DNA of 64,000 nucleotides, from positions 96,001 to 160,000 of IMG/VR virus record IMGVR_UViG_3300028800_000002; one strand, 5' to 3'. The first letter of the stretch is position 1, and every line of letters starts with the position of its first letter. The DNA is from a virus. Positions 1,974-24,978 of the stretch are shown piece by piece. The notes under the pieces are model-generated. The model did not search any database, was not told the DNA's origin, and saw only the letters and a list, made by a program, of their open reading frames with translations. Both the position numbers and the translations under genes were made by a program.

Positions 1974-2618
1974 GTGCCGCTAAATGATGTCGGAAGTTAC
2001 ACTTTGGGCGAGGTCAACATCGCGCTGTTAGCTGGAGTTGGGCTGTTGAATCCGCTGTTGTTGCAGCTGGACTTGTTCATCACTGGGCAGTTTGGATTAG
2101 GCCCTTTCCTAGCGGATATCCAAGTACAGTTCAACGCTGCCATCGCGCTGCAGCTCCAACTTAGCTTCAGTATATCGAGTCCATTCCTTGCAATTCAGGC
2201 CACCATCACAGCGCTGGCTAACCTCCAGGCATCCTTGGCGTTAGCTCTGGCAATGGGGCTCCCTGTGGTGTCGCTGCAGATAAGCGCGCAGATTGCTGCG
2301 ATGGCTTCCTTGCAGGCCACACTTGCATTCAAGCTTGGGGGCATCAGAGCGCTACTGGCCGCGGGCCTAGCAGTGAAGATACCAGCTCTTCGGTTTGTAG
2401 CTCAAATGAATGCTGCATTGTCGGCGGGCCCCGTGCATGTACTGTCATTCACAGGGGATATGCTGGCTGTGACCGGAGCCGAGATTGCGGCGGCCTTTGC
2501 ATCCGGGCTCGGGCCCAATGATCCAATTTTACCGACAGAACAAGTGAGCGGGGTTATCATCCTGACCAAGGACCCTGCTGTTTTTGCCGCCTTGGGCGGT
2601 ATCATCAAAGTCAATTAG
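1974..2618 (+). CDS. Extremely hydrophobic Leu/Ala/Gln-rich putative virion/membrane protein
   Basis: GTG start 2 nt after spike stop; about 105 residues with only two Asp. Confidence 0.7.
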   Translation: MPLNDVGSYTLGEVNIALLAGVGLLNPLLLQLDLFITGQFGLGPFLADIQVQFNAAIALQLQLSFSISSPFLAIQATITALANLQASLALALAMGLPVVSLQISAQIAAMASLQATLAFKLGGIRALLAAGLAVKIPALRFVAQMNAALSAGPVHVLSFTGDMLAVTGAEIAAAFASGLGPNDPILPTEQVSGVIILTKDPAVFAALGGIIKVN

Positions 2619-2628
2619 GAGCCAGCGC

Positions 2629-4788
2629 ATGACCCAGGCACTCTATCTAGTCCCGCAACTTGAGTTCGAAAAGTCTGCTGCGGAGACCGCACTGCCAGAG
2701 GACCCCAACCAGTGGCCTGACGCGGCGCTTCAAGAGCTATACAAGCAGGTCCCCTACTTGGCCGATTTCGATCTGCACGTGAACATGGAGAGTGTGGATG
2801 GAGAGCGTGGTTACGGTCTTGGCCACGTTGAAGTGACCAACAAGACTGAGGCCCCGATGACTTCTCCTCAGGATCAAATGGTTGCCGCGGGCATTCGTAC
2901 TGCACGTATTCCAGTCATCATCAAAGATAGTAAGTTGGCTCCCTTCGATGTCATATTGACCGACGATGCGCGGGCACTTCCGCTTACTGAGAGTCGACTT
3001 CGCCAGGCGATGTTTCGCCCGCAGAACTTCGATGTGACCAGCAAGACCCCTGGTGACCAGTCCATGATTGGGCAGCTCTACCCACCATACCGGCAGAACT
3101 ATGGCTTCGGTGGTGGTGGCGTAGCCACGAGCGCCGGCATGGGTGGAAAGACAGCTGCGAAGCATGCATCCCTTGAGGAGTGGCTGGAGAGTGAGGCAAC
3201 GGTCAAGACTGCTTCGGCTAAGTCGCGTAATCCTCAGCTACATGGCATGCGCATGGCAGCGTTGGACTCAGCGGTTGCCAAAGGTGCAGAGAAGACAGGA
3301 TCCATTTTGGCAGCGGTATTGCCGATGGCCAATGCCTCCGACTTAGCTGACTTCAAGCTGTGCTTGCTGGATACGAACATAAAGCTTGCGTTTGCCTCCA
3401 ATGTGGCAACGCATGATTCACTCATTCTTCTTTCAGAGGCACAGCCGACTCCGCTCGAGAAGCGTGCAGCAGCCATGCTGGATAACTTGGTTGCTAGTGT
3501 GACGCAGATCGTCAAGCTGCATGAAGGGTATGCAGTCAAGACTGCGAGTCACCGTGCCTGGGACCCGCGCGAGATTATTCTCAACCGTGGGGAGTTGGTG
3601 CACCGGTTCGGGCCTAAGATTGCGCTCGCGGCGGATACCTCGGGTGCGGTAACGATGTCCGAGGGTGAGGGGGTTTCTGAGGAGGGTATGGGTGCTCCGG
3701 TTGGGACTGGCGCTGGACCCATTTCGGCCCCCGGTATGTACCAAGTGCAGTCGGTCGAAGGTGAGATGTTGACCGGCGTGGTGATTCCCAACCTGCTCGA
3801 TGTGGATGGGAGCTCTCTGCCCATTGCATTCTTTACCGATGGCTCGCACGCCGCGGTGCAGTCCGATGTCTCGGGAGTTCCCGTGGGTGAGTTTACGGCC
3901 CCTGGGTCAGTCCCCGCGGGACAGGCGAGTGGGCATGGGGTGTTCTTTACCGAGGCGGGAGGTGTGCCATGTGCCACGTTGCCTTTGACGTTGGGCGCCT
4001 CGGTGCAAGGTGCCGGCGTTGATGAGCAGCCGCATTTTCAAGCTGAGACGTTTGACGGGCGCCCGGTGCAGGTCAGCGTTCAGCCATACGTAGCCACCGT
4101 GGTGGGTGTGGACGGGAACATGATTATCCCTGATGGATGGATGTGGATTCCCCTGGACCAGGCCGCTGAGGTTTCTCTCGCTGAATCCCCGATGGAAGTT
4201 GGGAAGACAGCGTCTGTGCAGCGCAAATTGGCGTCAGTGGAAGTGCGCGCGGGCGGCCTCGATTGCTTCTCGCTGCGCGGGTATCCGGTCGAGAAGTTGG
4301 CCTCTGATGAGCGCGAGTTCCTGACCCAGGATCGTGCCCTATTTGTTCTGGTAGGTCTTGGGGCCAATCCAGTCTATGCTCAACAGAAATTGGCATCGGC
4401 ATGCTCCGGCGCCAGTCACGTGGAGACGGTGCGTATCGGGCATCAGTTGAAGCTTGCCTCGGAACTGCGCGGGGAGAGCTACACCGAGGCGCAGAACTTC
4501 CTGGGTGCGATGCCGGTGTTCCGTCACCGCATGTGGAAAGAAGCGGCTACGCTCACCGATCCTGTTGCCGTGGACACAGTCTTGTCTCTCGGCTTCATCA
4601 ACCCCGAGAACATTGCGACATTCGTCGGCTACTTGCCAACGCTTGATGAAGCGCAGCGCCGCCTGTGCGAGATACTCATTGGGTCCAGGCTTGGGCTCAA
4701 AGAAGTCCCTGATGGTTCGACGGAACGCGCGATTCGCGCGCTTGAGGATGTGATCGAGGGTCTCAAGGTTGTGGCGTTTCAGGGCTAA
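2629..4788 (+). CDS. Large putative head-associated protein of unknown function, rich in K-x-A-S/A motifs
   Basis: AGGAG RBS before ATG 2629; 12 K-x-A-[SA] motifs in about 720 aa. Confidence 0.75.
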   Translation: MTQALYLVPQLEFEKSAAETALPEDPNQWPDAALQELYKQVPYLADFDLHVNMESVDGERGYGLGHVEVTNKTEAPMTSPQDQMVAAGIRTARIPVIIKDSKLAPFDVILTDDARALPLTESRLRQAMFRPQNFDVTSKTPGDQSMIGQLYPPYRQNYGFGGGGVATSAGMGGKTAAKHASLEEWLESEATVKTASAKSRNPQLHGMRMAALDSAVAKGAEKTGSILAAVLPMANASDLADFKLCLLDTNIKLAFASNVATHDSLILLSEAQPTPLEKRAAAMLDNLVASVTQIVKLHEGYAVKTASHRAWDPREIILNRGELVHRFGPKIALAADTSGAVTMSEGEGVSEEGMGAPVGTGAGPISAPGMYQVQSVEGEMLTGVVIPNLLDVDGSSLPIAFFTDGSHAAVQSDVSGVPVGEFTAPGSVPAGQASGHGVFFTEAGGVPCATLPLTLGASVQGAGVDEQPHFQAETFDGRPVQVSVQPYVATVVGVDGNMIIPDGWMWIPLDQAAEVSLAESPMEVGKTASVQRKLASVEVRAGGLDCFSLRGYPVEKLASDEREFLTQDRALFVLVGLGANPVYAQQKLASACSGASHVETVRIGHQLKLASELRGESYTEAQNFLGAMPVFRHRMWKEAATLTDPVAVDTVLSLGFINPENIATFVGYLPTLDEAQRRLCEILIGSRLGLKEVPDGSTERAIRALEDVIEGLKVVAFQG

Positions 4789-6759: not shown

Positions 6760-7009
6760 GTTTGGGAGGAGTGTATTCAGCAAGGAACTCGATATAGCCA
6801 CGCTTGTGGCTTAGTCCAGTTACTTTCCAATGTGAGCTTCTGGCATAGCGTTGGATGTAATTGGAGGCTATCTTCCAGATCGCAGGTTGAATTTTCTCGG
6901 CTAACCTCAATGTAATCTTGAAGCCCATGCCTTCAGGGTTTACGGTTGCTTCATCCCCCCAATGACCATCTGCTGCACTTTTGAGAGAGCCCCACAGGTT
7001 TTGTACCAT
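6647..7009 (-). CDS. Hypothetical basic protein
   Basis: Fills the gap 6760-7040; ATG 7009; basic C-terminus overlaps the convergent gene by 113 nt. Confidence 0.5.
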   Translation of the reverse strand: MVQNLWGSLKSAADGHWGDEATVNPEGMGFKITLRLAEKIQPAIWKIASNYIQRYARSSHWKVTGLSHKRGYIEFLAEYTPPKPKKKWDGRRRHRPPHPDGQKNQEQAPSAKESGQTPQP

Positions 7010-7043
7010 CGTTTGAGGGCTCTTGGTGGGTGTCGGGGGGAAC

Positions 7044-8855
7044 ATGGCAGCTATTGAGGTCTATCCTGATGAGTATGGTCCCGATGGTACACCGCTTTCC
7101 GATGAGGAGCTACGTCAAATAGAGCTCGGGGGCTGTTGGGCTCCGGAGGCTGAGCAGTACGTTGACCACTTTGAGGATGAGTTTGATCCCCATGTAGCAA
7201 ACGATGCGCCACCTATGATTCTGCCCTCGGCATTTACGGAATACGCCTTCCGGATGCCGACCCCTGATGGGTTCGAGAACTTCTCGTTTGAAGGTCGGCG
7301 GCATCTTCGGCAGGTGTACGACACTCCGATTCGGCGCATCCTCTTGATGTGTGGCCGCCAGGTGGAGAAGTCCACACTGCTTGGCAACCGGTCATTGAGC
7401 TACTGCTGCCTCATCCCGTCTTACAAGGTGCTTTACGTGAGCCCGTCTGCCACGCAGACCAAGACGTTTTCCAACGACCGTATCAAGGAGCCCATCGAGA
7501 CTAGCCCAGTGTTGCGCGCATTCACGACGCACATGCTGTCTCAGAACATCTTTGAGAAGCAGTTCATCAATCGCTCGAAGATTACATTGCGCAATGCCTT
7601 CTTGAATGCTGACCGTGCCCGCGGCGTCCCCGCGCACATGTTGGACATCGACGAGATTCAGAACATTCTCGCCGACAACATTCCCGTCATTGAGCAGTGC
7701 CTCTCACATTCACCGGAGAACATGAAGCGTTATGTTTACTCCGGAACGCCACTGACGCTGGACAACGTCATTGAGGACTACTGGTCTAATCGTTCCACGC
7801 AGAACCAGTGGGTTGTGCCATGTGATTGCCTAGTGGGGGAGGCGGGTCGTTACTGGAACATCCTTGGTGAGAAGAACATCGGGCTGCACAATCTGATCTG
7901 TGAGCGTTGCGGCAAGCAGATATTCCCAATGTGCACTGATGCCCAGTGGGCATGCTCGGTTGACTACGACCCAGTCCACACACCGTTCGAAGGATTTCGT
8001 ATCCCTCAGTTGATGGTGCCATGGCTCGATTGGGATGAGCTTCTTTACAACTTTGAGCATTACGGTCGAAACAAGTTCTACAACGAAGTACTCGGTATCT
8101 CGTACGACACGGGGCTTCGCCCGTTGACCAGCGCGCAGATTAGAGCCTGCTGCAACGAGAATGTCTTCATGGCAGACGCCCCCAAGTACCAGGGCTTGGG
8201 CTTTGGTCAGGAGATCTTTGCCGGCATCGACTGGGGCACAGGAGAGCATAGCTACACGGTGCTCACGTTGGGGACGTACATCGGAAACAAGTTTAGGATT
8301 TTCTACATCCACAGGTTTGTTGGCGAGGACACAGAGCCTGAGCGCCAGCTGCAGAAGATCGAAGAGGTCTGCCGAGCGTACAACGTGCGCGTTATCGGAG
8401 CCGACTACGGAGGTGGACATTACCCCAATGACTTCCTGGTTCGGCGCTTCGGTAGAGAGCGCGTGATGCGGTATCAGTACGCTGCCCGTTTATCCGCCAA
8501 GGTTAGGTGGGAGCCAAAGCTACAGCGCTGGATTGCGCACCGCACTGAGGTCATGAGTGCGATCTTCAACTCAATCAAGCGTGCCACCGTATTTGAGTTT
8601 CCCCGTTGGAAGGAATTCAAATCCCCCTATGGTCAGGACTGCTTGAACATCTTCAGCGAATACAACGAGAAGATTCGTATGATTCAGTACGGGCACACCG
8701 CCGGCAAGACCGATGACGCCTTCCACTCGATCTTGTATTGCTTCCTTGCCTCTATGGTGACGAAGCCGCGTCCCGATGTAATTGCCCCAGGTAAGGAAGC
8801 TGACGCGATAGGCTCTGTGTGGTCTTCTTACAGCGGCCCAACAAATCAAGGTTGA
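7044..8855 (+). CDS. terL: Terminase large subunit
   Basis: Walker A-like MCGRQVEKST, Walker B LDIDEIQ, coupling SGTP, RNase H nuclease AGIDWG..GADYGG..DDAFHS, CxC/CxxC insertion. Confidence 0.92.
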   Translation: MAAIEVYPDEYGPDGTPLSDEELRQIELGGCWAPEAEQYVDHFEDEFDPHVANDAPPMILPSAFTEYAFRMPTPDGFENFSFEGRRHLRQVYDTPIRRILLMCGRQVEKSTLLGNRSLSYCCLIPSYKVLYVSPSATQTKTFSNDRIKEPIETSPVLRAFTTHMLSQNIFEKQFINRSKITLRNAFLNADRARGVPAHMLDIDEIQNILADNIPVIEQCLSHSPENMKRYVYSGTPLTLDNVIEDYWSNRSTQNQWVVPCDCLVGEAGRYWNILGEKNIGLHNLICERCGKQIFPMCTDAQWACSVDYDPVHTPFEGFRIPQLMVPWLDWDELLYNFEHYGRNKFYNEVLGISYDTGLRPLTSAQIRACCNENVFMADAPKYQGLGFGQEIFAGIDWGTGEHSYTVLTLGTYIGNKFRIFYIHRFVGEDTEPERQLQKIEEVCRAYNVRVIGADYGGGHYPNDFLVRRFGRERVMRYQYAARLSAKVRWEPKLQRWIAHRTEVMSAIFNSIKRATVFEFPRWKEFKSPYGQDCLNIFSEYNEKIRMIQYGHTAGKTDDAFHSILYCFLASMVTKPRPDVIAPGKEADAIGSVWSSYSGPTNQG

Positions 8856-11525: not shown

Positions 11526-13274
11526 GTGATCAAGGTCAGCTTATTCCAAGGCAGCGAGGAGTATGGTCCTGCGGCGGTTCCACTGTTTGGAGCCGCCGAT
11601 TCATATTTCGAGAAGACTGCCTCCGCCACCTTGCTTCCTGAGGTCTCCAACTACATTGCGCAGTTGAGGCCGCGCAACGACTCCCAGTACGTGTTGGTCA
11701 ACGCCATGGGCGCCGGTGAGTACTACGGATCGAACATCAATGGAGACCGTTTCGCTGAGGCAGCCCTAATACATTCGCCGGACAACTGGAAGGGTGTGCC
11801 AGTCTTCGACAAAGCCATAGCTGCTCGCTGGGCGTATGGATTTCCTACGTTCTACCGTGCGCACGTGTTCCCTCATCATAGAAACAAGGACGCCGGCAAA
11901 GCCCTTGGCTTCGTGGAGCTGGCAGCGTGGAACAACCACATGAAGCGAGTCGAGCTCGTCACACGGCTCGATCAAGCGTTGTGCAGAAATTTCGGAGGGG
12001 ACAGTATTTGGGACAAGCTCAAGGCAGGGGATTTCCCCGATGTGAGCATGGGTACTAAGGTTCCATTTGACACTTGCTCAATCACGTTGGACCGTGAGTT
12101 GTACCAGCGCGCGTGGGACACTTACAACCCCAGGCGCCACAAGAGCCCTGGTGAGGCCATCCTAGAGTTCCACAAGAAGCTCAAGGAAAAGAACGGCATT
12201 GGCATTCGTGGCCTGAGCATCACGCGTAACGACTACTCAGATTACGCGCGCACACGGATGAATCACATCCTCCCCGACGGGCGCAAAGTCTGGGTGGACA
12301 ACGACTTTCCAGCGTTCTTCGACATCAGCTTCGTGTTCATTGGCGCGGACAAGATCGCCAAGGCGATGTTGAAGATTGCCGATGGTGGTCGTGTTTACAG
12401 CATTGGCTCCGCTGAGCTGGCAGAGAAACTTGGTGCAGTGGCTACGGAGGACATGCTTGAGAAGACTGCTCGTTTGCTCACGCGGTCTGATTTGGGTCTG
12501 CCCCCTCGCGAGAAAGAGGCGATGACCAAAGAGGTTGTGCCAAACCAACTCGCGGGTAAAGCCGTCCCGTTGTTGACCGCGCAGGAGCATGATCTTCCAG
12601 ATGAGGTGCTGCAGATGCTGGGCGCTGCCGGGCTGGATAAGGCCCTGACCACATCTGCCGGGCTTGGCATGGTGCTGCGTCCCCGCGAGTTCCAGCGGGT
12701 GACCCTCATCAGCATGGGGCAGTCAGATTTGGCGGAGCAGCTTGCCTCCATGGACCAACTGTTTCCCAAAGTTGAGGAAAAGTCCGATGTACCGATGGAC
12801 TCGGCTTCTTTTAGCCCCGTTTTGTCGCAGTTGTTGGCCCCTTTGATGGCGGACCGCTCGGCGTTTGGTCCGTTGATTGAGCACCGCGTGGTAATACTTG
12901 TAGGCGCCCCCGCCAAAAGTTCAAAGCCAAGTGCTTCCCATTCCTCGGAACTACTACGTAAGATTGGGGCAGCCTACAACGGTTATCGAGACAGCCTTAT
13001 GCAGTTTGTACCACAAGCGCAGGACTTGATTGAGTCAACAGCACCGCGTAGCGATGTCGTACTCCGCAAGATCGCTAGTGTGTCTGCTGCCGAACTCTTT
13101 ACCCCTTTGTCCTTCCGTTACATGTCGCAGGCGTTCCTCGATGAACTCCCTGTTGGAACTTCAGGACAAGGAGTGGTAAAGCAATCAAGCGACCAGGCTA
13201 TGGCCAGCGTGCAGAGGGCACTCCCCTTGGTGACCACGCGACTAAGTACACCACCAGTTACCACAGGAGTTTGA
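11526..13274 (+). CDS. Prohead (capsid maturation) serine protease
   Basis: NINGDRF, FPHHRNKD (His), DVSMG (Ser), FFDISFV: HK97/assemblin-type layout; upstream of scaffold-like and capsid genes. Confidence 0.8.
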   Translation: MIKVSLFQGSEEYGPAAVPLFGAADSYFEKTASATLLPEVSNYIAQLRPRNDSQYVLVNAMGAGEYYGSNINGDRFAEAALIHSPDNWKGVPVFDKAIAARWAYGFPTFYRAHVFPHHRNKDAGKALGFVELAAWNNHMKRVELVTRLDQALCRNFGGDSIWDKLKAGDFPDVSMGTKVPFDTCSITLDRELYQRAWDTYNPRRHKSPGEAILEFHKKLKEKNGIGIRGLSITRNDYSDYARTRMNHILPDGRKVWVDNDFPAFFDISFVFIGADKIAKAMLKIADGGRVYSIGSAELAEKLGAVATEDMLEKTARLLTRSDLGLPPREKEAMTKEVVPNQLAGKAVPLLTAQEHDLPDEVLQMLGAAGLDKALTTSAGLGMVLRPREFQRVTLISMGQSDLAEQLASMDQLFPKVEEKSDVPMDSASFSPVLSQLLAPLMADRSAFGPLIEHRVVILVGAPAKSSKPSASHSSELLRKIGAAYNGYRDSLMQFVPQAQDLIESTAPRSDVVLRKIASVSAAELFTPLSFRYMSQAFLDELPVGTSGQGVVKQSSDQAMASVQRALPLVTTRLSTPPVTTGV

Positions 13275-13278
13275 CCAC

Positions 13279-14082
13279 ATGTCGTCCATGAGCGCTCTAC
13301 TTGCAGATGTATTCCAAACCAAGACCGCTTCTGCTCACACCGAGGAAGACTTGGTAAAGCAGGCCGATTACGCATTCTTTGGCGCACTATGCCGTCAAGA
13401 AGGCATCGATGTTTCTGCCCTACCGGACGCCAAGGTAGAGGAACTGTTCAAGGTTGCCATGGAGATGAAGGCAGCCTCAGATCACGAGGAAACTGAAACT
13501 CCCAAGGAGGAGAAGATCGAGGAAGCTGCCAAGGAAAAGGCCAAGGAGAAGGAAGCTGCCGCGCGCGCCGAGTATCAAGAGAAGCGTGCTGCTGCCACCA
13601 AGGTCGCTGAGGCTGAGGCGATGGGCCGCATCATGGCGCACGCCTACGTCGATGAGATGAAGAAGATCGCGGAAGCTGCCGAAGAAGCCGAGAAGAACAA
13701 GGACGGCAAGTCTGGGTTCCCGTTCGGTAAGAAAGATGGCAAGAAGGACGACAAAGAGGAGAAGGAGAAGGAAGCTTCTGCTCGCGCCTCTGAGCTGATT
13801 GCTGCTTTTGAGCAGATGAAAACAGCCAGTGCTCCTGCCGCAGGCACCACCACGACCCCGAACTTCGATGAGTTCGCGGCCCTGCAGGCGATTGAACTGC
13901 TCAAGCAAGCCCAGGTCGATGAGGACGTCGCCTATGCTCGAGTCAATGCCGTGCGGACGCTGGGTCTGCCAGAGTCGACGAAGATGGCATCGGCTACGAG
14001 TGAGGCGAAGGCTCTCGAGTATCGCGCCCTTGAGATTTGTGACGCAGCCGGGTTCCAGGTTGACTGGACACAGGTCGCCTAA
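13279..14082 (+). CDS. Scaffolding-like protein
   Basis: Charged E/K/A coiled coil between protease and MCP; 7 K-x-A-[SA] motifs. Confidence 0.65.
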   Translation: MSSMSALLADVFQTKTASAHTEEDLVKQADYAFFGALCRQEGIDVSALPDAKVEELFKVAMEMKAASDHEETETPKEEKIEEAAKEKAKEKEAAARAEYQEKRAAATKVAEAEAMGRIMAHAYVDEMKKIAEAAEEAEKNKDGKSGFPFGKKDGKKDDKEEKEKEASARASELIAAFEQMKTASAPAAGTTTTPNFDEFAALQAIELLKQAQVDEDVAYARVNAVRTLGLPESTKMASATSEAKALEYRALEICDAAGFQVDWTQVA

Positions 14083-14113: not shown

Positions 14114-15727
14114 ATGTGCGCATGGGAGTACAAACCGCAGTTCAGGAAGACCGCAGACGCGGTCTCCGTGCCTATCGCCGATTCGACGGTAGGTGCAGCT
14201 GCGACTGCTCCCTTGCCGGAGTTGGCAGTGGGGAACAAGCCCGCGCCCGGTCTAACCGGTCCCAAAGGCTTGGCCCCACGCACCAACTACTCTCGCGTCA
14301 ATTCCGGATCACCACCGCCCGCGGATTTGGGCTCCACTTCTCAGAAGGGGCTGCCGACAGATCCGCAAGGATTTTTGCCACCTAAGGTTGCGCACTACGA
14401 GGTTCCTATGACCGCGATGACCCAACGATATACGATTCAGGACATGATCAAGGCAGCCGCCGCAGGCGCCTCGAGTCAGGTCTCAGTTGCCCTCGAAGGC
14501 ACGAGACAACTCGCCAACTCTGGCGAGAAAGTTGCTTCAGCTACTGCACTAACCCCCAATGGGGAAGAGTCCATTTCGACAGCCTACGTTGAGAAGCTGG
14601 CGGCAGCAGTTGATTACATCATTGAGCTCAGCAAGGAAGCTGAAGAGCCTGGACCCGGTACGGGCCCTAATCCCCTTCAGGTTCTCGAAGCCAAAGCTTC
14701 CAACAATGAGATCGAGGCAGGGCACACGGGAGAGGCAACTCCTGCCCATTTGATTCCTAAGAATCCTGGGTTGCAACGACCCAGCGGAAATGCGCAGGGG
14801 CCGGCGAATGCCCTTGATGACAATGCGTCGTCAATGCTCCCGGCATACCCTGTCAAGCTTAGTTCAGCGGATATTGAATGCCTGCGTAAAGCAGCGGCGG
14901 GAAATCCAGAAGGCCATCACATTCGTCGTGAGATTCTAGGAAACCCCATTTCTTCTGCCATCGAGGCTAAGAAGGGTAAGAAACTGGAGTCTGCAGGCAA
15001 AGCTTGGTGGCACGGGGCTAAGGAAGGTCTCAAAGGCCTTGGCGCTGGTGCAGCTGCAGGAGGCGCCATTGGTGCTGGTGTTGGGGCATTGAAGGGTGGA
15101 CGCGCCGGTGCTGCTCAGGGAGCTGTACACGGTTCGGTGCGGGGCGCGCAGATCGGTGGAGCCGTTGGTGCACTAAAAGGCCGGCACGATACCGAGGCAA
15201 GTCGCATCCATGGGGAGCACAGCAAGCACAAGGAAGCTTCGGCTTCTGACGGTCGCTTGGTAGACTACTTCCTGTCCATGACGAAAGCCGCGGAAGATGC
15301 CATCAACCCAGCAAAGATTTCAGCGGGCGCAGCAGTGCCCCCTGAGACCTCGGCATCGGGTGAATCAGGTGGTGCTCCTGTCGGTGGTCAACCGCAAGGA
15401 CCTGTTGGTTTGATTGGCTCAAATGACGCAGCCATCAACTTTCAGAAGCGTGAAGCTAAAGCGCCGGTGAAAACACAAATGGCTAGGATTCTTACTGAGC
15501 CAGCGCTTTCCGCCGCACATGATCACACACTCGACCAAGCCTTTGACAACACGGGCAAGGCCGGCGTGAAGATTTCATCGTCAGTTCGAGCTCTGTCAGC
15601 TCGAGCCGTCCTCGAGAAGATGGCTGAAGAGGCTTGCGCAACAACACCACCTAAGAAGAAGGTGGGCGCGGGCATGGGGAACTTTCAAGCACCTCCAGTC
15701 GGCGGCGTAGCCGGCGCTGCGTCGTAA
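14114..15727 (+). CDS. Scaffold/core-like protein with an inserted glycine-zipper cassette (possible second start ATG 14408)
   Basis: Low-complexity P/A/G protein with many K-x-A motifs; GAGG RBS before ATG 14408. Confidence 0.7.
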   Translation: MCAWEYKPQFRKTADAVSVPIADSTVGAAATAPLPELAVGNKPAPGLTGPKGLAPRTNYSRVNSGSPPPADLGSTSQKGLPTDPQGFLPPKVAHYEVPMTAMTQRYTIQDMIKAAAAGASSQVSVALEGTRQLANSGEKVASATALTPNGEESISTAYVEKLAAAVDYIIELSKEAEEPGPGTGPNPLQVLEAKASNNEIEAGHTGEATPAHLIPKNPGLQRPSGNAQGPANALDDNASSMLPAYPVKLSSADIECLRKAAAGNPEGHHIRREILGNPISSAIEAKKGKKLESAGKAWWHGAKEGLKGLGAGAAAGGAIGAGVGALKGGRAGAAQGAVHGSVRGAQIGGAVGALKGRHDTEASRIHGEHSKHKEASASDGRLVDYFLSMTKAAEDAINPAKISAGAAVPPETSASGESGGAPVGGQPQGPVGLIGSNDAAINFQKREAKAPVKTQMARILTEPALSAAHDHTLDQAFDNTGKAGVKISSSVRALSARAVLEKMAEEACATTPPKKKVGAGMGNFQAPPVGGVAGAAS

Positions 15728-16706: not shown

Positions 16707-17822
16707 ATGTCGGTTTCGGCGAGCGTTCTAAACGAGCTTTTTGCTTCAAAACTCAGCACGAGTGAAGGCAAAGAGAAGATTGCCGAATACGGTGGTTCTT
16801 ACATTCGTGACCGCCTTCGTGAGGTGAGCTTTGCTCGCAAAGTTATCCCGCCGGAGCAGGTTACGCGTGCGGACTGCCAACGTTCGGTAAACCACGACAC
16901 CTTGGTCAAGGTTGTGGACATTGAGCCACAATCGCGCGCCATGGCGATTACATTCCGAGGGCAACCCAATGCTCGCTTCATTCGAGGCGACAGGGCTGAG
17001 ATTGCCTTCTTCACCATCAGCTCTGAGATGTTCCAGAAGACGGAACAGGAGCTCTTGGCTTACGAGATGCCCATCACCAAGGTCATCGAAGAGAACTCGG
17101 TGAAGGACATCCAGGAGATTGAGGATCGTGAATTCACGATCCACATCGAGGCTGCGGTTCAAGCGCTGCAGACTGAGGCCAATGGTGGGACGTCAGTGCC
17201 CCTCCATGTAGGCACCATCGGGTCAACGGTTGAGTTCTCCGTGCGCAAGGGCGAGCTTGCTCGTAATGCGTCCGGGAACACGGCAGAGGTTCTGCCGGTT
17301 CAGCGCCCCGACCTCATCAACCTCTTCAAGATGCTGGACGGCAACCGACTGCGTGCTGAGCGCATGCTCATGACCGAGGTCGATTGGGATGACATTCTGC
17401 AATGGACGGTGGAAGACTTCGGTGACCGCGTTCAGTCTGAGACTACGGTCGATGGCTACAAGTACAATACCCTCCTGGGGCATTCGTACATTCGTACCAT
17501 CAAGACCGACATTCTCCGGCCGGGCAACGTCTACATCTTCACCAAGCCCGAGTTCTTTGGCAAGTTTTACGTGTTGAACAACACGAAGTTCTACATCGAT
17601 AAGATTGCCAACACGATCACGTTCCAGGCCTGGGAAGATATCGGTATGTCGGTGCTCAACATTGCCGCAGTTCGAAAGCTCGAATTGTACTCGGGTGATG
17701 CGACGCTGGGCGATGCAGACGGTCTGCTCACCAACTTCATTCCGAAGGCGGAAGACGCTTTGGGCGCGGTCAACAACCGCGTTTCCGAAGGGCTCAAATT
17801 CCCGCAGGTTTCTCAGTTCTAA
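16707..17822 (+). CDS. Major capsid protein (HK97 fold)
   Basis: 371 aa; IRDRLREVSFARKVIPP..ITKVIEENSVKDIQEIEDREF; strong AAGGAG RBS, biased codons, followed by a terminator. Confidence 0.82.
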   Translation: MSVSASVLNELFASKLSTSEGKEKIAEYGGSYIRDRLREVSFARKVIPPEQVTRADCQRSVNHDTLVKVVDIEPQSRAMAITFRGQPNARFIRGDRAEIAFFTISSEMFQKTEQELLAYEMPITKVIEENSVKDIQEIEDREFTIHIEAAVQALQTEANGGTSVPLHVGTIGSTVEFSVRKGELARNASGNTAEVLPVQRPDLINLFKMLDGNRLRAERMLMTEVDWDDILQWTVEDFGDRVQSETTVDGYKYNTLLGHSYIRTIKTDILRPGNVYIFTKPEFFGKFYVLNNTKFYIDKIANTITFQAWEDIGMSVLNIAAVRKLELYSGDATLGDADGLLTNFIPKAEDALGAVNNRVSEGLKFPQVSQF

Positions 17823-17847
17823 GCTGTGCTGTAGCGCAGACACGCGG

Positions 17848-17884
17848 AAGGGCGTCGGTGCCGTGGGCCCGGCGCCCTTTCTTA
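17848..17884 (+). terminator. Intrinsic terminator after the MCP gene
   Basis: AAGGGCGTCGG / CCGGCGCCCTT 11-bp stem (one G-U) followed by TCTT. Confidence 0.7.
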
Positions 17885-17921
17885 GTTCTGGGAAAGTTGT
17901 ATGCTCGGTGTGGAGGTTCAG

Positions 17922-18851
17922 ATGGCAGATGTGGAAGAGAAGGAAGCCCCTCAAGATGATGTCGGCCTGTTGCAGCGCCCGTGCCTTGAGGAGTTCATAG
18001 CCAGCGGCTATGCGGCAGATCAATACGACATTTACTTCGGTGAGCACTACGGCCCTGGTTGGAGCAACCCTGCTTGGAAGCCTGTGGAGGAATCCGGGCA
18101 CAGGCCTTCAGACATGGGCGCGTTAGCCAAGCTTGTGGAGGACCTAGAGTTACCTCCGATATTTCATGTGCGGAGCCAAGTTCGGAAGGTGGCTACCAGG
18201 ACCCTACGGTCACAGCAACCCACCCGGCATCGGTTCAAGCAGTACCTGTTCAGTGATCCAAGCAAGCGGCTCACACGTGCGCGTCACGTGAATGTGACCG
18301 CGATTGAGCTGGTGCAGAACCTGGACGAGCTCATTGCCCACGAAGGAGTAGGACGTCTTTCTGTGCATACCCCTGATGGGCGCCGCTTGGATTTGGCGCA
18401 GTTGAAGCGCGGCCTGCCTGTCCTGAGCGCACCTGCGGTGACCCCTGCACTCTACAATCGTCGGCTCGATTCCATCGCGCACGACTTACCCTCTGGCATC
18501 CCAATGCCCACCTATATCGACGGAACTTTCCCTGGCGATCCTGCAGCGCAGCGTGCCATGGAACGTATTGCGGCAGAGAAGCGGCACGAGGCTGTGCGGC
18601 AAGGCGCTTCAGTGGAAGAGCCCGCCCCTGTGGAGCCAGTTGCATCTGAGCCTACAGTAGAGGAGCCAACGGCTCCCGTCGCTGAAGTACCTACGGAGGA
18701 ACCTTCAGTAGTCGAGGAGACGTCTGAAATCTCCGAGGTACCTGACACGCAGGATGATGTGGTTGCTGAGGAAGATCCCCCTTCTTCGCCAGCTGTCGAC
18801 CCAGCTGCCAGTCGCTCAAGTTCAACTACACGTAAGAGGCATCGACGCTAA
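17922..18851 (+). CDS. Hypothetical protein with acidic Pro/Glu-rich tail
   Basis: GGAGG RBS before ATG 17922; TG-TATGCT upstream. Confidence 0.7.
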   Translation: MADVEEKEAPQDDVGLLQRPCLEEFIASGYAADQYDIYFGEHYGPGWSNPAWKPVEESGHRPSDMGALAKLVEDLELPPIFHVRSQVRKVATRTLRSQQPTRHRFKQYLFSDPSKRLTRARHVNVTAIELVQNLDELIAHEGVGRLSVHTPDGRRLDLAQLKRGLPVLSAPAVTPALYNRRLDSIAHDLPSGIPMPTYIDGTFPGDPAAQRAMERIAAEKRHEAVRQGASVEEPAPVEPVASEPTVEEPTAPVAEVPTEEPSVVEETSEISEVPDTQDDVVAEEDPPSSPAVDPAASRSSSTTRKRHRR

Positions 18852-19219
18852 TGCGCGTATTCAATCTCACGGATGTTTCAACACCCACGTTAGTGCGCTA
18901 CGGTCTGCTCAATCAGCAGATTGTGGTGCATCGGCGTTCTGTGTCGCCCGGGGAGTATGTCGAAGTAGAGGATACGGTCGACATGCGCACCCGATTGGAG
19001 CACGTGCTGACGTTGGGGGCTGTTTCGATAGACCAACTTCCACCGGCTTATGCGCAGGCCCGTCAGCAACAACAAGCTACACAGCACAGCACCTTTGCTG
19101 GAATTCCAGTGCGCCACGTGGATCTACAGGAAACCAAGGTGGCCGGTACAATCAATCAGCCGCAGCCCTCTTCTGTGGATGCAGCCATAACCCCCATTAG
19201 GAGAAAGGGACGTCCATGA
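18851..19219 (+). CDS. Hypothetical protein
   Basis: TAATG coupling with upstream gene. Confidence 0.7.
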   Translation: MRVFNLTDVSTPTLVRYGLLNQQIVVHRRSVSPGEYVEVEDTVDMRTRLEHVLTLGAVSIDQLPPAYAQARQQQQATQHSTFAGIPVRHVDLQETKVAGTINQPQPSSVDAAITPIRRKGRP

Positions 19220-20213: not shown

Positions 20214-21304
20214 TGGACGCGTTTCAACGAGGATTCAGCCGCGGTATTCCTTTGGAGAAGGCAGCATCCTTCTTCGTCGGTATGAAGTCGTGGCAACAGC
20301 CGCGGCCTTCGACATTGGCTGTTGCCAAGCAGGCAGCCGCACAAGTACTAGATTCACCGCTCACGCGCTTTCGGAAGATAGCCTCTGAGAATGAGGAGCC
20401 GGTTCAATCTGGTGCTGCGATGTCGACACCAACCCCTGATGGTGTTCCCGCCCAGGATAACTACCTAGCCAATGAGGCAGCGGGCCTGGAGGCTGAGAAC
20501 ACGGCCTCTGTGCAGTATTACCAAGGGTTGCTCGAGCAACTCCGTGGTGAGTCGGCTGAATCCCAACAGCGTGCAGAGCAGGCAGAGCAGCAAGCACAGC
20601 AGCTCGAGGCAGCGCAAGCAGAGCATGACAGCCAGTTGGCAGCCGCCCAGCAAGAGGGTCAGATTGCCCAGCAGGCGGCCATGCAGCAGGTGCAGAGCGC
20701 CAACATGGCTGCATCCACAGCTATGCAGCAGGCTGTGGACGCCGAGAACCGAGCGTTGCAGGCCAAGACGACTGAGACTTCGGCCAAGATTCAGCAGCAG
20801 CAACTTCGAAGTACTCTCCTCGATTTGGCAGCTCAAGGTCTCCCGGGTACAGAACCCGAGATGGGTGGCGAGGGAAATGCCGCTGAGGGTGTAGCTCCTG
20901 AACAAGTTCCGCAGGCGGGTGCCCCAGCGGATGGTACACAGCCCGGCGCTGAAGGTGGGCAGGAAGCAACGGCTGCTGCAGGCCCTGGCGCTGGTGGTTT
21001 GAATCAGCAAGGGCAACCGGCGAATGCCGAGGGAATGCCCGGGCAAGAGGCGTCGACTGAGACCGCAGGCGCCGCGGCACCCGGGACTCAACCGCAACCA
21101 GCGGGGGACGCCTCCGGTGGATCAGGCGCAGGATCAGGGACGGGACCGCAGTCCAACACTGACGGGCAGCCGTCACAGCCCGAGCAAGATCCCACGGCGA
21201 AGCGACAAGGGCAGGTCTCCATCAAGGTTGGAAGCCCTTCACTCGTTGCATTGATGGATCGCCTGGAGGCTAGCGGATGCCTCCCTTTAGCCCAGGGCAG
21301 GTAA
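20213..21304 (+). CDS. Putative internal head protein with Gln-rich coiled coil and Gly/Pro/Gln tail
   Basis: KAAS, KQAA, KIAS in N-terminus; long Q/E/A heptads. Confidence 0.7.
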   Translation: MDAFQRGFSRGIPLEKAASFFVGMKSWQQPRPSTLAVAKQAAAQVLDSPLTRFRKIASENEEPVQSGAAMSTPTPDGVPAQDNYLANEAAGLEAENTASVQYYQGLLEQLRGESAESQQRAEQAEQQAQQLEAAQAEHDSQLAAAQQEGQIAQQAAMQQVQSANMAASTAMQQAVDAENRALQAKTTETSAKIQQQQLRSTLLDLAAQGLPGTEPEMGGEGNAAEGVAPEQVPQAGAPADGTQPGAEGGQEATAAAGPGAGGLNQQGQPANAEGMPGQEASTETAGAAAPGTQPQPAGDASGGSGAGSGTGPQSNTDGQPSQPEQDPTAKRQGQVSIKVGSPSLVALMDRLEASGCLPLAQGR

Positions 21305-21663
21305 AAGCTGCCGGGCTTGCTCAGTATGCGAAGGACCCTCGAGTTATCGGGGGTCTGATCGGCGGTGGTTTAGGAGCAGGCCTGACCGCTTACGAAGCGT
21401 CTGGACGAGGGCCCGACCTGGACAAGTACCGACAGAGAATTGACCAGAAGGTGGAGAGGATGCAGCAGCCCGGCGTGCGTAACTTCGCGCGTGCAATGGA
21501 CATCTCTACCGACCGTTCATTGCTGACCGCGGGGGAAGCCGTGCAGGCGCACCCAGTTCTTTCCACGCTGGCCGCGGGAACCATGGGCGCCATCACCGGC
21601 GCCACCGCTGGGCCTGAGCTTGTACAATTGCTGCGCGAAGCGGCGTCGAGTTACCGGGGTTGA
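21277..21663 (+). CDS. Small glycine-zipper protein
   Basis: QVKAAG then VIGGLIGGGLGAGL and LAAGTMGAITGATAG. Confidence 0.7.
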   Translation: MPPFSPGQVKAAGLAQYAKDPRVIGGLIGGGLGAGLTAYEASGRGPDLDKYRQRIDQKVERMQQPGVRNFARAMDISTDRSLLTAGEAVQAHPVLSTLAAGTMGAITGATAGPELVQLLREAASSYRG

Positions 21664-21685: not shown

Positions 21686-24082
21686 ATGCTTGATCAGTAC
21701 CTGAGAGTTGCCTATGAAAGCACACAAACCAAGGTGGCCCATCGGGAGCTCATCGACCAGTTGAAGACTCTACCGTTGGAAGAGCTCATCAAAGCGGCCA
21801 ACGGTGACCCTACCTCCAAGCTGACATACACCGACGGCCCATCTGACGGTCAATGGATCGACAAATACAAGGGCACCCCTTTGTTCGAGAAGGCCATTGA
21901 GCTCGAGAAGCAACTCTTGCAGATCGACATGCAGGAGAACCAAGAGCACGCAGCGCGCCGCGCAGAAGAGAAAGCGGAGGAGCCACGCACCAATTTTTAT
22001 GACCAGCGTGATGCGCTCAAGCTGCAGCAGCGCATGCTCGATCTCGAACTGGCTACTTCTCAAGAGTCTGGCTCAAACCCTGAGGCTAAAGAGGAGCAAG
22101 GTGCACAGTTGATTGAACAAGCGCAGGCTCAAGAGATCGCCGAGGGCAAGGGCAACGAGCCCCATGAACAGGCCGAGACTGCCGCATTGAACCAGTTTCG
22201 ACAGGCGCAACAGCAAGAGGCGGTGGAAGCACCGAAGACCGCCAGTGCACTACACAACGCAGCCAAGGGGATCAAAGGCTATGCAAAAGCGCTCGGCGGT
22301 AAAGAGCACGATAAACTGCGTGCAGCCGCTTTAGGGCATCATTTGGCAGATGTCTTTGGGCGAGCGGACGCGAAAATACAACGTGATCCTAAGATGGGGA
22401 GAGTGCTCAAGATACGCGCGATGGGGCATGACGTGCGTAACCTATCCCCTGAGGGTATTGAAGCTAGCGCTGACAGGCATGCACATGCCTCTAAGAAGCT
22501 GCATGGTTTAGCAGACAAAGCTGCAGACAATACATCCCGTGCACGCAAAGGTACTGCTCGTGTGGCAGGCGCCCTTGGAGGTGCAGGTATTGCAGCCGCG
22601 GCAGTCTCTCATCACAAGAACAAGGAAAAGACTGCAGGCAGCATTGTGAACTCCATTGTCCCGGAAACGCGCAGCCTAGGGCGCACCCCTGCTGGAGATC
22701 ATGCACAGGGCGCTGGGGCTGGTGAGGTTTTCAGTGATCCATCAGCGACGGTAACTGAAGGGCTGCAGGTCAACAAGACTGCGTCAGTTGCCAGCGCCGC
22801 GAGTCGGTTCAAGGAGCTGGCCACTGGAAGCAAAGCCCGCAAGTTAGAGGAAACTGCTAGTAACTGGGGACGCGCTGCAAACCTTTCAGGCAAGCACCCT
22901 GCGGTTGCGGGAGCTGGTAAAGCTGCCGAACGTTACGGCAAGGCGGCCAGGACAGAGCGACTCAAGTCTCTTGGTACGCAGGCGGCCTCAGCGGGAGGGG
23001 CTGTTGCCGCTGGTGCTGGTGTGAAACACTTGGCGCGCAAAGAGAAGACGGCAACGCCCTATGACGATTATTTGAAGACAGAATTGAATCAGCGTGGGCA
23101 TGAGCAGAAGGCAAAGAGCCAAGAGGCACATCCCACCCGTACTAGGATCCTTGGGGCGCTATCCGAAGGTGCCCGTGTTGGTATACCTTTGGGCTTAGGT
23201 AGCGCTGGGGGCGCGCTTCTTATGACCCGCAATCCTCGGTTTGCGTTAGAGCAAGGTATGAAGGGTCTAGCCATTGGCGGAGGTCTTGGTGCATTGGGTG
23301 GTTCCATGCAAACTCCCGGTGAGCTCGATAGGAACATGGCATCTATGTATGGGGATGCGCTCACTCCTGATTCGTTACGAGAAGATGCTAAATCTAGTAG
23401 GGAGCTAGGTGACCATATTGATAAGCATCCTACTCAAATACGTGCTGCTAGGGGTATTGGCTTTGGAGCGGCAGGAGCCCTCGGAGGGAGGCTCATCGGA
23501 GGTGCTCTTGGTCATCCAGATTTAGGGACAGCTATCGGTGCTGGCGGTGGTGCATTACTTGGTGCTTTGCCGAAGCCTAGTGGAAAGGGAGCTCATCAGG
23601 ATGCCGCTGAGATCGAGAAGTACATGCAGACCCGTGGTATACCCACGGAAAAGCAGGCTGGCATTGGGAGCAGCATCATACAGGCAGGACAGTCAGCACT
23701 GACGGCTGGTAAAGGCATGCTTGCCAATGCTGGCGGTTTGTCTGGATTGGGTTCGAAGGCGATGGGTTTTGCCAAGGCAAATCCCCTTGCTACAGCCGGC
23801 ATTGCAGGCGGGGCCGGACTTCTTGCAGGCAAAGCCCTAGCGCGCCCACAACAGCAGAAAGTAGCTGCGGTCGATATTCGAAAGGCACTGCAAGGAGCCA
23901 AACAGCTCCCTTTTAGGGTGAAGACTCTTGCGACTGAGGCCTATCGCAAGGGCGGAGTTCCTGAGGTCATAGGAACCTTCGAGGACAAAGGCATGGGCGC
24001 GTTGCAGGGCGCCTCCTCGAAGTTAGAGTCTGCAAAGAAGAAGTTTCATGCGCTAGCAACCGAGTACAATCCCTACATCTAA
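21686..24082 (+). CDS. Modular putative head polyprotein with K-x-A-delimited glycine-zipper cassettes
   Basis: AGGAG RBS; segments separated by KTAS/KTAG/KTAS/KTAT/KQAG/KVAA. Confidence 0.75.
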   Translation: MLDQYLRVAYESTQTKVAHRELIDQLKTLPLEELIKAANGDPTSKLTYTDGPSDGQWIDKYKGTPLFEKAIELEKQLLQIDMQENQEHAARRAEEKAEEPRTNFYDQRDALKLQQRMLDLELATSQESGSNPEAKEEQGAQLIEQAQAQEIAEGKGNEPHEQAETAALNQFRQAQQQEAVEAPKTASALHNAAKGIKGYAKALGGKEHDKLRAAALGHHLADVFGRADAKIQRDPKMGRVLKIRAMGHDVRNLSPEGIEASADRHAHASKKLHGLADKAADNTSRARKGTARVAGALGGAGIAAAAVSHHKNKEKTAGSIVNSIVPETRSLGRTPAGDHAQGAGAGEVFSDPSATVTEGLQVNKTASVASAASRFKELATGSKARKLEETASNWGRAANLSGKHPAVAGAGKAAERYGKAARTERLKSLGTQAASAGGAVAAGAGVKHLARKEKTATPYDDYLKTELNQRGHEQKAKSQEAHPTRTRILGALSEGARVGIPLGLGSAGGALLMTRNPRFALEQGMKGLAIGGGLGALGGSMQTPGELDRNMASMYGDALTPDSLREDAKSSRELGDHIDKHPTQIRAARGIGFGAAGALGGRLIGGALGHPDLGTAIGAGGGALLGALPKPSGKGAHQDAAEIEKYMQTRGIPTEKQAGIGSSIIQAGQSALTAGKGMLANAGGLSGLGSKAMGFAKANPLATAGIAGGAGLLAGKALARPQQQKVAAVDIRKALQGAKQLPFRVKTLATEAYRKGGVPEVIGTFEDKGMGALQGASSKLESAKKKFHALATEYNPYI

Positions 24083-24978
24083 TGCCTGTCCCCATTGAAC
24101 TGCGCGAGCTCAAGGTTACCTCACTGGATGTAGATTTCCATGAGGTATCTTGGGTTGTAGCTCCCACGTCGCTCGACATCTTGGACTTTCAGTTCGAGGT
24201 GCTGCGCTCTGAGGCTGAAGAAGGGCCGTACGAATCGTTGGCGGGCCCGTTTGAGGACCGTTACTCCTTCATCGATAACATCGTCATGGTGCTTCATCGA
24301 TGGAGGACCTACCAGTACATTGTTCGTATCCGGGAGAAATTGAGTGGAGACTACAAGGATTTCGGACCAGTCTCTCATGACCCAGAGCCAGACATTGTCG
24401 CCATTGAACTACGACGACACATTCGAGTCCTCTTCCAGGAGTACGCAGGGAGACGATGCATTGTTCTTCCTGTTCGCACTTTTGGTCAGCGGTGCCCTGC
24501 TTGCTGGAATCCGATCTTGCAGAAGGTCACGAAATCGGGCTGCCTGACTTGTTACAACACTGGGTTCAATCGCGGCTATATGCATCCGATTGAAACCTGG
24601 ATTCAGATTGATCCGAGCACTAAGTCCCAACAGCACGGCAATCCTGGGGAAACACAGCAGGACAACACTACGCTGCGTCTTGGGTATTACCCATCCATCA
24701 AGCCGCACGATCTCATCATTGAGGCCGAGAATGTTCGCTGGCGTGTTGAGGAGCAGACACAGACTGAGCACTCGCGGGCAGCGGTACATCAGGAAGTGAA
24801 AGTACATCGTGTTCCAGAGAAGGATATTGAGTACGCCATTCCTGTGCACTACGCATCGGCGTTGAAGAACTTGTACTTCACTCCGGAGCGTAATTTTACA
24901 AACCCGACCAGTCTCAGTGCTTTTGAAAGCAATGAGGTACCTGGTATCTTTGACTTGTACTCGGTGCGTAGCAGGTAA
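24082..24978 (+). CDS. Head-closure/neck protein with FN3-like N-terminus and CxxC..CxxC finger (putative)
   Basis: VSW..FEVLRSEAEEGPY..YQYIVR (FN3-like); RCPACW..GCLTCYNTGF; IKPHDLIIE..RWRV. Confidence 0.55.
   Translation: MPVPIELRELKVTSLDVDFHEVSWVVAPTSLDILDFQFEVLRSEAEEGPYESLAGPFEDRYSFIDNIVMVLHRWRTYQYIVRIREKLSGDYKDFGPVSHDPEPDIVAIELRRHIRVLFQEYAGRRCIVLPVRTFGQRCPACWNPILQKVTKSGCLTCYNTGFNRGYMHPIETWIQIDPSTKSQQHGNPGETQQDNTTLRLGYYPSIKPHDLIIEAENVRWRVEEQTQTEHSRAAVHQEVKVHRVPEKDIEYAIPVHYASALKNLYFTPERNFTNPTSLSAFESNEVPGIFDLYSVRSR

Follow-up and report, generated by a model that had tools for sequence, protein, structure and literature searches.

An important question raised by the virus record IMGVR_UViG_3300028800_000002 is whether one long gene among its head genes encodes a single structural protein or a string of separate proteins that are made together and then cut apart. 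The record is a 186,443-bp virus with direct terminal repeats, of which we analysed a stretch of 64,000 nucleotides (the window; bases 96001-160000), and the gene in question is an open reading frame (ORF) of 798 amino acids (aa). The initial annotation, made from the sequence alone, had divided the protein into modules delimited by six K-T/Q/V-A sites. All six are there (PKTAS at residue 184, EKTAG at 315, NKTAS at 364, EKTAT at 454, EKQAG at 656 and QKVAA at 725), the module contents agree with that parse, and a seventh site, TKVAH at residue 16 (KTAS in most orthologues), lies at the end of an N-terminal leader. Our preferred answer, which we hold to be reasonably probable, is that this polyprotein is a precursor from which a protease releases internal head proteins. 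Its parts are given below, with arrows marking module borders and GC3 standing for the G+C fraction at third codon positions.

21686..24082, plus strand: polyprotein gene, 798 aa (leader, acidic N-domain, cassettes M1-M5, tail)
21686..21739, plus strand: N-terminal leader of 18 residues, ending K-V-A (K-T-A in most orthologues); K-x-A lies at residues 9-24 in 108 of 140 family representatives
21740..22243, plus strand: conserved acidic N-domain, residues 19-186, ending PKTA↓S; N-terminal in all 478 representative clusters
22244..22636, plus strand: cassette M1, residues 187-317, basic, with 10 His and a Gly/Ala zipper at 289-307, ending EKTA↓G; GC3 0.44
22637..22783, plus strand: cassette M2, residues 318-366, an acidic spacer of 49 residues ending NKTA↓S; its family occurs in 18 orthologues, with both flanks unrelated
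22784..23053, plus strand: cassette M3, residues 367-456, basic (isoelectric point, pI, 10.8), with an Ala/Gly-rich end, ending EKTA↓T
23054..23659, plus strand: cassette M4, residues 457-658, a double glycine zipper (7 GxxxGxxxG), ending EKQA↓G; GC3 0.43
23660..23866, plus strand: cassette M5, residues 659-727, a basic (pI 11.4) glycine zipper ending QKVA↓A; last or near-last in 26 orthologues
23867..23914, plus strand: short tail, residues 728-743, AVDIRKALQGAKQLPF, which is the protein end in relatives; holds C_CCT_TTT at 23908-23914
23915..24082, plus strand: C-terminal extension of 55 residues (744-798) plus stop codon, compared with relatives L002, L003/L008, L005 and L009

For the motif as such, the single polyprotein sequence is suggestive at most. 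K[TQV]A[SGTA], in which the [TQV] class was defined after the sites had been seen, occurs six times against 0.57 expected, a count that none of 5000 shuffles reached, and KTA occurs four times against 0.53 expected (p=0.003). We therefore turn to orthologues, of which 26 (442-803 aa) were found by a word-indexed search and 21 more came from viral contigs by anchoring on the conserved downstream gene. In a border test on 30 close orthologues, the proteins were cut at a given motif and those residues of the variable part were counted whose segment matched one in another orthologue with a reciprocal coverage of at least 80%. Cutting at K-x-A put 73% of the variable-part residues into matched segments, in contrast to 23-49% for seven control motifs and 10-18% for random cuts in equal number, and the pieces obtained by cutting at K-x-A↓[SGTAN] group into families with matching ends. 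When five cassette families were aligned together with 20-residue flanks, the neighbours were wholly different and had the K-x-A at the joint alone in common. An ungapped identity profile anchored at the cut sites showed a clear step at the cassettes' C-terminal border only. The ends of BLAST high-scoring segment pairs were also tried as a breakpoint test but did not discriminate, as several control motifs likewise collected such ends, in low-complexity stretches rich in Ala.

Between these borders the cassettes turn over extensively. The 30 close orthologues show 28 distinct cassette orders. The leader and acidic N-domain always come first and an M5-type zipper cassette last or nearly so in 26 proteins, and the middle is a shifting choice from about a dozen cassette families; the flanking genes hold their order, and most also their length, across relatives. 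M1 has no counterpart in the orthologues compared and is the only cassette unique to this phage. The comparison proposed in the initial annotation thus came out as expected there: from one orthologous locus to the next, both the number and the identity of the modules change, and the changes are bordered by the motifs. In a distant orthologue (L028:7884-10001) a two-cassette unit is duplicated in tandem (147+31 and 138+31 residues), with KMAS, KVAS and KTAS at the borders. Genes of homing-endonuclease type (Endonuclease_7, HNH_3) occur in the head block of relatives (L003:9384-10001 and 6933-7466; L004:7446-7979 and 17808-18875), one of them directly upstream of a polyprotein gene, and such genes may promote local recombination.

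The motif extends beyond the polyprotein, with its enrichment confined to the head genes. The ORFs of window positions 2500-32300 (the head block) contain 32 K-x-A-S where 3.5 would be expected, a ninefold enrichment, and the remaining roughly 49,000 codons of the 186-kb genome contain 12 where 14.3 would be expected. Carriers of KxA[SGTA] include ORFs 2584 (12 sites), 9499 (8), 13279 (7), 14114 (5), 15737, 20213, 21277, 29470 and 31654, with a site frequently located 10-30 residues from the N-terminus. Over 61 head-block sites, P4 is E in 17, P3 is K, P2 is any residue but mostly T, P1 is A, P1' follows the preference S > A > G > T and P2' is A or V. Synonymous codons for K, x and A vary freely at the sites, which places the signal in the protein and not in the DNA; a DNA-level recombination signal at the joints was rejected on this ground. 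For the carrier listed with the most sites, ORF 2584-4788 (734 aa), whose product may be the portal or another head protein, 1.1 KxA[SGTA] sites would be expected in place of the 12 observed, four of which read K-L-A-S and lie within a stretch of 80 residues. Further features of the head block that matter here are the following.

11526..13274, plus strand: probable prohead protease, 582 aa, with the fold domain at about residues 47-296
13279..14082, plus strand: charged helical protein, 267 aa, with 7 KxA[SGTA] sites, adjoining the protease
14900..15238, plus strand: glycine-zipper cassette NPEGHH...HGEHSKH within ORF 14114 (residues 263-375), bounded by KAAA↓G and KEA↓S
21277..21663, plus strand: free-standing cassette gene, 128 aa, with the leader ...QVKAA↓G

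If these sites are cut, which enzyme would do so? The initial annotation had pointed to a head protease, ORF 11526, and structural modelling agrees with this assignment, the predicted fold being that of a capsid-maturation protease. For the full-length protein, modelled with a predicted local distance difference test score (pLDDT) of 62, the match to T4 gp21 is weak (Foldseek probability 0.90, E-value 0.15; Z-score 4.8). The model of residues 1-315 (pLDDT 76; predicted template modelling score, pTM, 0.74) matches gp21 with a Z-score of 8.7 (root-mean-square deviation 2.8 Å over 130 of 165 residues), and other chains follow with 7.6 for the varicella-zoster virus (VZV) protease, 5.0 for that of human cytomegalovirus (HCMV) and 5.4 for the best unrelated chain. 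Foldseek with the same model places gp21 on top, followed mainly by the proteases of pseudorabies virus, Epstein-Barr virus, HCMV, herpes simplex virus 1 and Kaposi's sarcoma-associated herpesvirus (E-values 0.03-0.5). More than 1,296 homologues of ORF 11526 were found, with 55-80% identity among the best listed. Among 34 close ones (53-79% identity), E29-K30-x-A32 and the candidate catalytic residues H118 and S174 are invariant and H117 is almost so; in a broader sample of 29 homologues, with identities down to 44%, no change is seen at K30, A32, H118 or S174, and E29 and H117 are almost constant. A second K-x-A past the protease domain is nearly invariant as well (K313 and A315 in at least 90% of the 34 homologues; consensus EKTAS, here EKTAR). 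Six homologues of about 950 aa (P0048, P0079, P0085, P0086, P0134 and P0143) carry an intein (Hint, LAGLIDADG) at residues 174-184, i.e. 0-10 residues from the invariant S174; inteins are usually inserted in active-site regions. Judged by its modelled fold, ORF 11526 is very probably the capsid-maturation protease, and we infer that it is proteolytically active with specificity for K-x-A. The cut is predicted to fall after the Ala, because cassette homology starts at P1' and herpesvirus assemblin cuts between Ala and Ser. The product of the adjoining ORF 13279 is, by its sequence features, a scaffold-like candidate substrate.

Cassettes are also found outside the polyprotein. The family of the cassette in ORF 14114 serves as a polyprotein cassette in eight orthologues. 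This phage and its close relatives have ORF 21277 as a gene by itself, whereas in the distant relatives L004, L006 and L007 its counterpart forms the C-terminal end of the ORF 20213 orthologue, as a cassette with a K-[TVI]-A joint at exactly the leader residue. Such crossing of gene borders at the joints is expected if the cut sites, and not the limits of the gene, set what becomes a mature product. ORFs 20213 and 21277 overlap here by 28 nucleotides in different frames, and the three relatives have one ORF of 482-515 aa. Lengths vary among relatives for both carriers (441-600 aa for orthologues of ORF 14114, window 14114-15727, in L002-L007; 365-515 aa for those of ORF 20213), and these orthologues may be further cassette carriers.

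These findings bear on the view that the polyprotein is never cut but is a multi-domain structural protein, e.g. an internal or neck-associated fibre, in which K-x-A is a favoured flexible linker or recombination joint. The variable part is indeed Ala/Gly-rich and without a named domain, so that it could be a flexible string, and distant orthologues manage with few K-x-A sites. Yet many unrelated head proteins also have a short leader at the N-terminus that terminates in K-x-A, an invariant K-x-A borders the protease domain itself, enrichment of the motif is restricted to head genes, and the free-standing cassette retains its K-x-A leader, down to four residues. We regard an uncut protein as decidedly unlikely. 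A single conserved fold spanning the motifs, against which the initial annotation had set its modular parse, was not seen, since the Atlas model of the whole polyprotein is poor (pLDDT 0.51, pTM 0.27) and gives no pointer to one fold across the joints. Searches of the whole polyprotein and of single cassettes against PHROGs and Pfam gave no match above cut-off, and none was found among 50,697 phage records by tblastn and megablast.

What kind of proteins would be set free is suggested by the distribution of charge. Residues 39-186 of the N-domain carry a net charge of -14 (pI 4.5). This domain sits at residue 1 in the 478 clusters (formed at 50% identity), with protein lengths of 143-853 aa among the best 150 listed, and in 140 family representatives the first 170 residues have a mean net charge of -12 and the remainder is net positive in 96%. 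M2 (pI 4.9) is the sole acidic cassette, M1, M3, M4, M5 and the tail having pI values of 8.9-11.4. Apart from M2, the predicted mature products are proteins of 69-202 aa within this basic range. M1, M3 and M5 share a layout in which a basic stretch is followed by a Gly/Ala-zipper helix, a short patch (basic in M1 and M3) and K-x-A; M4 has two zipper helices.

An acidic, helical and Gln/Glu-rich N-domain is reminiscent of a scaffold, and one may ask whether K-x-A cuts simply chop a scaffold or core protein for removal before DNA entry, as with T4 gp22 or the SPN3US propeptides, with no payload delivered. Multiple cuts do clear propeptides in giant phages (PMC10052503), and the motif also saturates the scaffold-like ORF 13279. 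The cassettes, however, are basic, the opposite of what DNA entry normally expels; they form conserved sequence families and also survive as separate genes that have a leader of their own; the product of ORF 13279, next to the protease, is the better scaffold candidate; and 28 orders in 30 proteins suit accessory cargo better than an assembly core. On balance, removal as a scaffold seems unlikely to us, although less so than an uncut protein.

The glycine zippers raise the further alternative of a membrane-anchored assembly or lysis factor, whose helices would anchor in the host inner membrane and not act inside the capsid. M5, the last zipper, resembles the DUF883/ElaB tail-anchor region (DUF883_C, E-value 1.3e-5, 25.2 bits against a curated cut-off of 27, hence just below it), and the polyprotein has four moderately hydrophobic stretches. 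Where scored, the zipper helices reach Kyte-Doolittle (KD) values of 1.15-1.35, which is below the usual transmembrane values. The gene, moreover, lies between the capsid genes and a block resembling neck and tail genes, shares the motif code of the head block and has no adjacent lysis genes, and we consider a membrane-anchored factor very improbable. For M4, Pfam matches stay below threshold (Gly-zipper_YMGG 16.3 against a cut-off of 28.9; Gly-zipper_Omp 14.8 against 25), and an Atlas look-up gave weak glycine-zipper leads at best (scores up to 0.83). A suspected likeness of the cassette with the pattern FALP...YPI...H..NA to a DUF family was unconfirmed by Pfam and was dropped.

A processed precursor of internal head proteins could operate as follows. 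The 18-residue leader and the conserved acidic N-domain would head a chain of cassettes, most of them basic and several containing glycine-zipper helices, and bring it into the prohead. Each link between cassettes would consist of (E)-K-x-A with S, G, A or T as the next residue, and during head maturation the gp21/assemblin-like protease (ORF 11526) would cut these joints, probably after the Ala, thereby freeing the cassettes as separate small basic proteins that remain with the DNA and perhaps bind it. At infection they may exit together with the DNA, and their zipper helices could then act on the host envelope. Recombination, duplication and gene fusion or fission at the joints would alter the cassette set with the rest unharmed, since a cassette forms a complete unit from one cut site to the next.

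Several points weigh against this interpretation. In the Ala/Lys-rich polyprotein the loose motif KxA[SGTA] is near chance (6 versus 4.3 expected) and, as the tighter class was defined post hoc, the case for the motif rests on the orthologue comparison. The variable part of more distant orthologues is poor in K-x-A sites, and the N-domain nearly lacks internal ones, so that it could not be cleared as small peptides. Every glycine-zipper match in Pfam, for the query and ten orthologues alike, falls under the curated cut-off. The protease match of ORF 11526 is at the level of the fold alone: no sequence-family match was obtained for it in PHROG, in Pfam (where the 34 homologues were also searched) or in the PDB by phmmer and profile. 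Finally, cleavage of the polyprotein and its presence in the virion are, for this phage, predictions from sequence comparison and modelling.

The gene has the following neighbours. Upstream lie the large terminase (7023-8855, phrog_675, E-value 3e-54), ORF 11526 and the major head protein (16707-17822, phrog_2522); on its 3' side follow a conserved 298-aa protein (24082-24978) and a 1049-aa protein, in a conserved block that carries no annotation here and looks like neck and tail genes. A tail tape-measure protein was rejected on account of this location, after the capsid block and ahead of the two conserved genes for 298 and 1049 aa; a tape-measure gene is expected behind those for sheath and tube, with the tail chaperone gene on one side and baseplate genes on the other.

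Codon composition also differs along the gene. The A/T-rich third positions noticed in the initial annotation at about 23050-23650 are real: GC3 is 0.66 in the N-domain, 0.44 in M1 and 0.43 in M4 (nucleotides 23054-23659), with a genome mean of 0.60 over 200-codon windows; M4 is lower than any other 200-codon window of the genome, and the drop persists with Gly and Ala codons excluded. The recent acquisition that had been read from this, however, does not hold up, because the closest relatives have M4 at the same place (about 66% identity) and with a GC3 below that of the N-domain there too (0.56 versus 0.69, 0.49 versus 0.63 and 0.45 versus 0.64 for the M4 family and the N-domain, respectively). 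By this sequence comparison, low GC3 is a trait of M4-type cassettes and does not date their arrival.

The C-terminal end of the polyprotein shows a difference of another kind from its relatives.

Window 23906-24082, L002:12400-12573, L003:11998-12171, L005:11494-11651 and L009:9828-9990: candidate -1 frameshift regions

The protein of L002, L003/L008, L005 and L009 has the C-terminus ...L-P-L-G/E-stop; C_CCT_TTA stands two codons ahead of the stop, and the -1 frame can be read on through some 52 codons as far as the next gene. The window has CCCTTTT instead, i.e. a run with one extra T, which brings the C-terminal extension (residues 744-798) into frame. A motif of this extension, GGVPEVIGTFEDKGM, is conserved in L002, L003/L008 and L009, with L005 divergent there. 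An identical 798-aa protein is recorded from a second contig, a mild argument against a one-off assembly error. In this phage a -1 slip at C_CCT_TTT would meet TAG at once. The RNA consensus fold behind the slippery site is weak, with an unfavourable covariation term (+1.84), and no convincing stimulatory structure was seen. From these sequences, the relatives probably make a short form and a -1 frameshifted long form, and this phage the long form directly.

If the joints are cut, the consequences would reach beyond this gene. Cargo loading and release of the T4 type would be extended to many cargoes per gene, under a new protease specificity (P3 Lys, P1 Ala) that recalls herpesvirus assemblin, and with a simple grammar by which evolution, or an engineer, adds or swaps cargo while the assembly genes stay untouched. 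Moreover, protease, substrates and mature ends would be named for a widespread metagenomic lineage in which almost no gene is annotated. One may tentatively go further, as a possibility that we rate below the precursor reading itself and find rather doubtful: in a large and hardly studied lineage of 165-205-kb phages, a head protease with a herpesvirus-like K-x-A↓S rule would provide a general loading-and-release code, by which any peptide that lies between two sites and behind an acidic carrier domain is packed, cut free and delivered, and the array would be a set of membrane-active or DNA-binding zipper effectors, reshuffled at the cut sites in almost every strain, in an arms race with the host.

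Cultured relatives offer access to these questions. Three Vibrio phages and Salmonella phage Arash (OQ632216, a 181-kb myovirus and the nearest) were the only ones found. Arash gp222 shares 28% identity with ORF 11526 over 76% of the latter, and is surrounded by the head proteins gp220, gp223 and gp225 (OQ632216:145213-150170), which carry 7, 6 and 5 KxA[SGTA] sites against 1.05, 1.1 and 0.6 expected, respectively. A homologue of the polyprotein was not found in Arash by tblastn. The Arash virion proteome contains gp222; neither a protease nor cleavage sites are given in that publication (PMC10585845). With a cultured phage and a published virion proteome, the cleavage rule is directly testable.

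How does this architecture relate to known systems? The initial annotation's statement that nothing of the kind had been described in phages was too strong, as polyvalent proteins, the head proteins of phiKZ and SPN3US and the T4 internal proteins are close analogues. Polyvalent proteins combine many modules in one virion-associated polypeptide that is believed to accompany the DNA on delivery and to be set free partly by proteolysis, and they show strong domain shuffling (PMC5512222). Unlike the protein described here, which has no named domain and whose presumptive protease is a separate gene, they are built from enzyme and effector domains that can be recognised as such, frequently together with a peptidase domain of their own; since no enzyme domains were found, the polyprotein is not a polyvalent protein in that sense (PMC5512222). 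In T4 and SPN3US, head proteins bear N-terminal propeptides that are removed by the prohead protease, often with several cuts, and SPN3US and phiKZ (protease gp245/gp175, motif A-x-E) have head proteins with a repeated motif and long propeptides as well as a self-cutting protease (PMC10052503). There, however, the extra cuts degrade the propeptide and leave one C-terminal mature protein, whereas here the pieces between sites are conserved, exchangeable units; also, A-x-E differs from K-x-A.

Herpesvirus assemblin, in turn, has the site (V/L/I)-x-A↓S and cuts between Ala and Ser. The predicted P1 Ala and P1' Ser here mirror this rule, in line with the modelled fold match to the VZV protease (Z-score 7.6). 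Assemblin acts on the protease and the scaffold, in contrast to a fixed Lys at P3 and many head proteins as predicted substrates in this phage.

T4 internal proteins are loaded into the prohead, cut free and injected, and their cargo genes are highly variable between related phages. IPI, IPII, IPIII and Alt, which are cut by gp21, are likewise small basic proteins with an N-terminal leader ending in a protease site, and gp21 has the same fold as that modelled for ORF 11526 (general facts on the system in PMC9026906). The leader found here has no sequence similarity to the T4 capsid-targeting sequence, and the cargoes lie behind a 170-residue acidic domain and are glycine-zipper peptides without enzyme domains, unlike in T4. 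Thus, where T4 has one cargo per gene and the site L/I-x-E, this phage has several cassettes plus a tail in a single ORF, with K-x-A as the predicted site of release.

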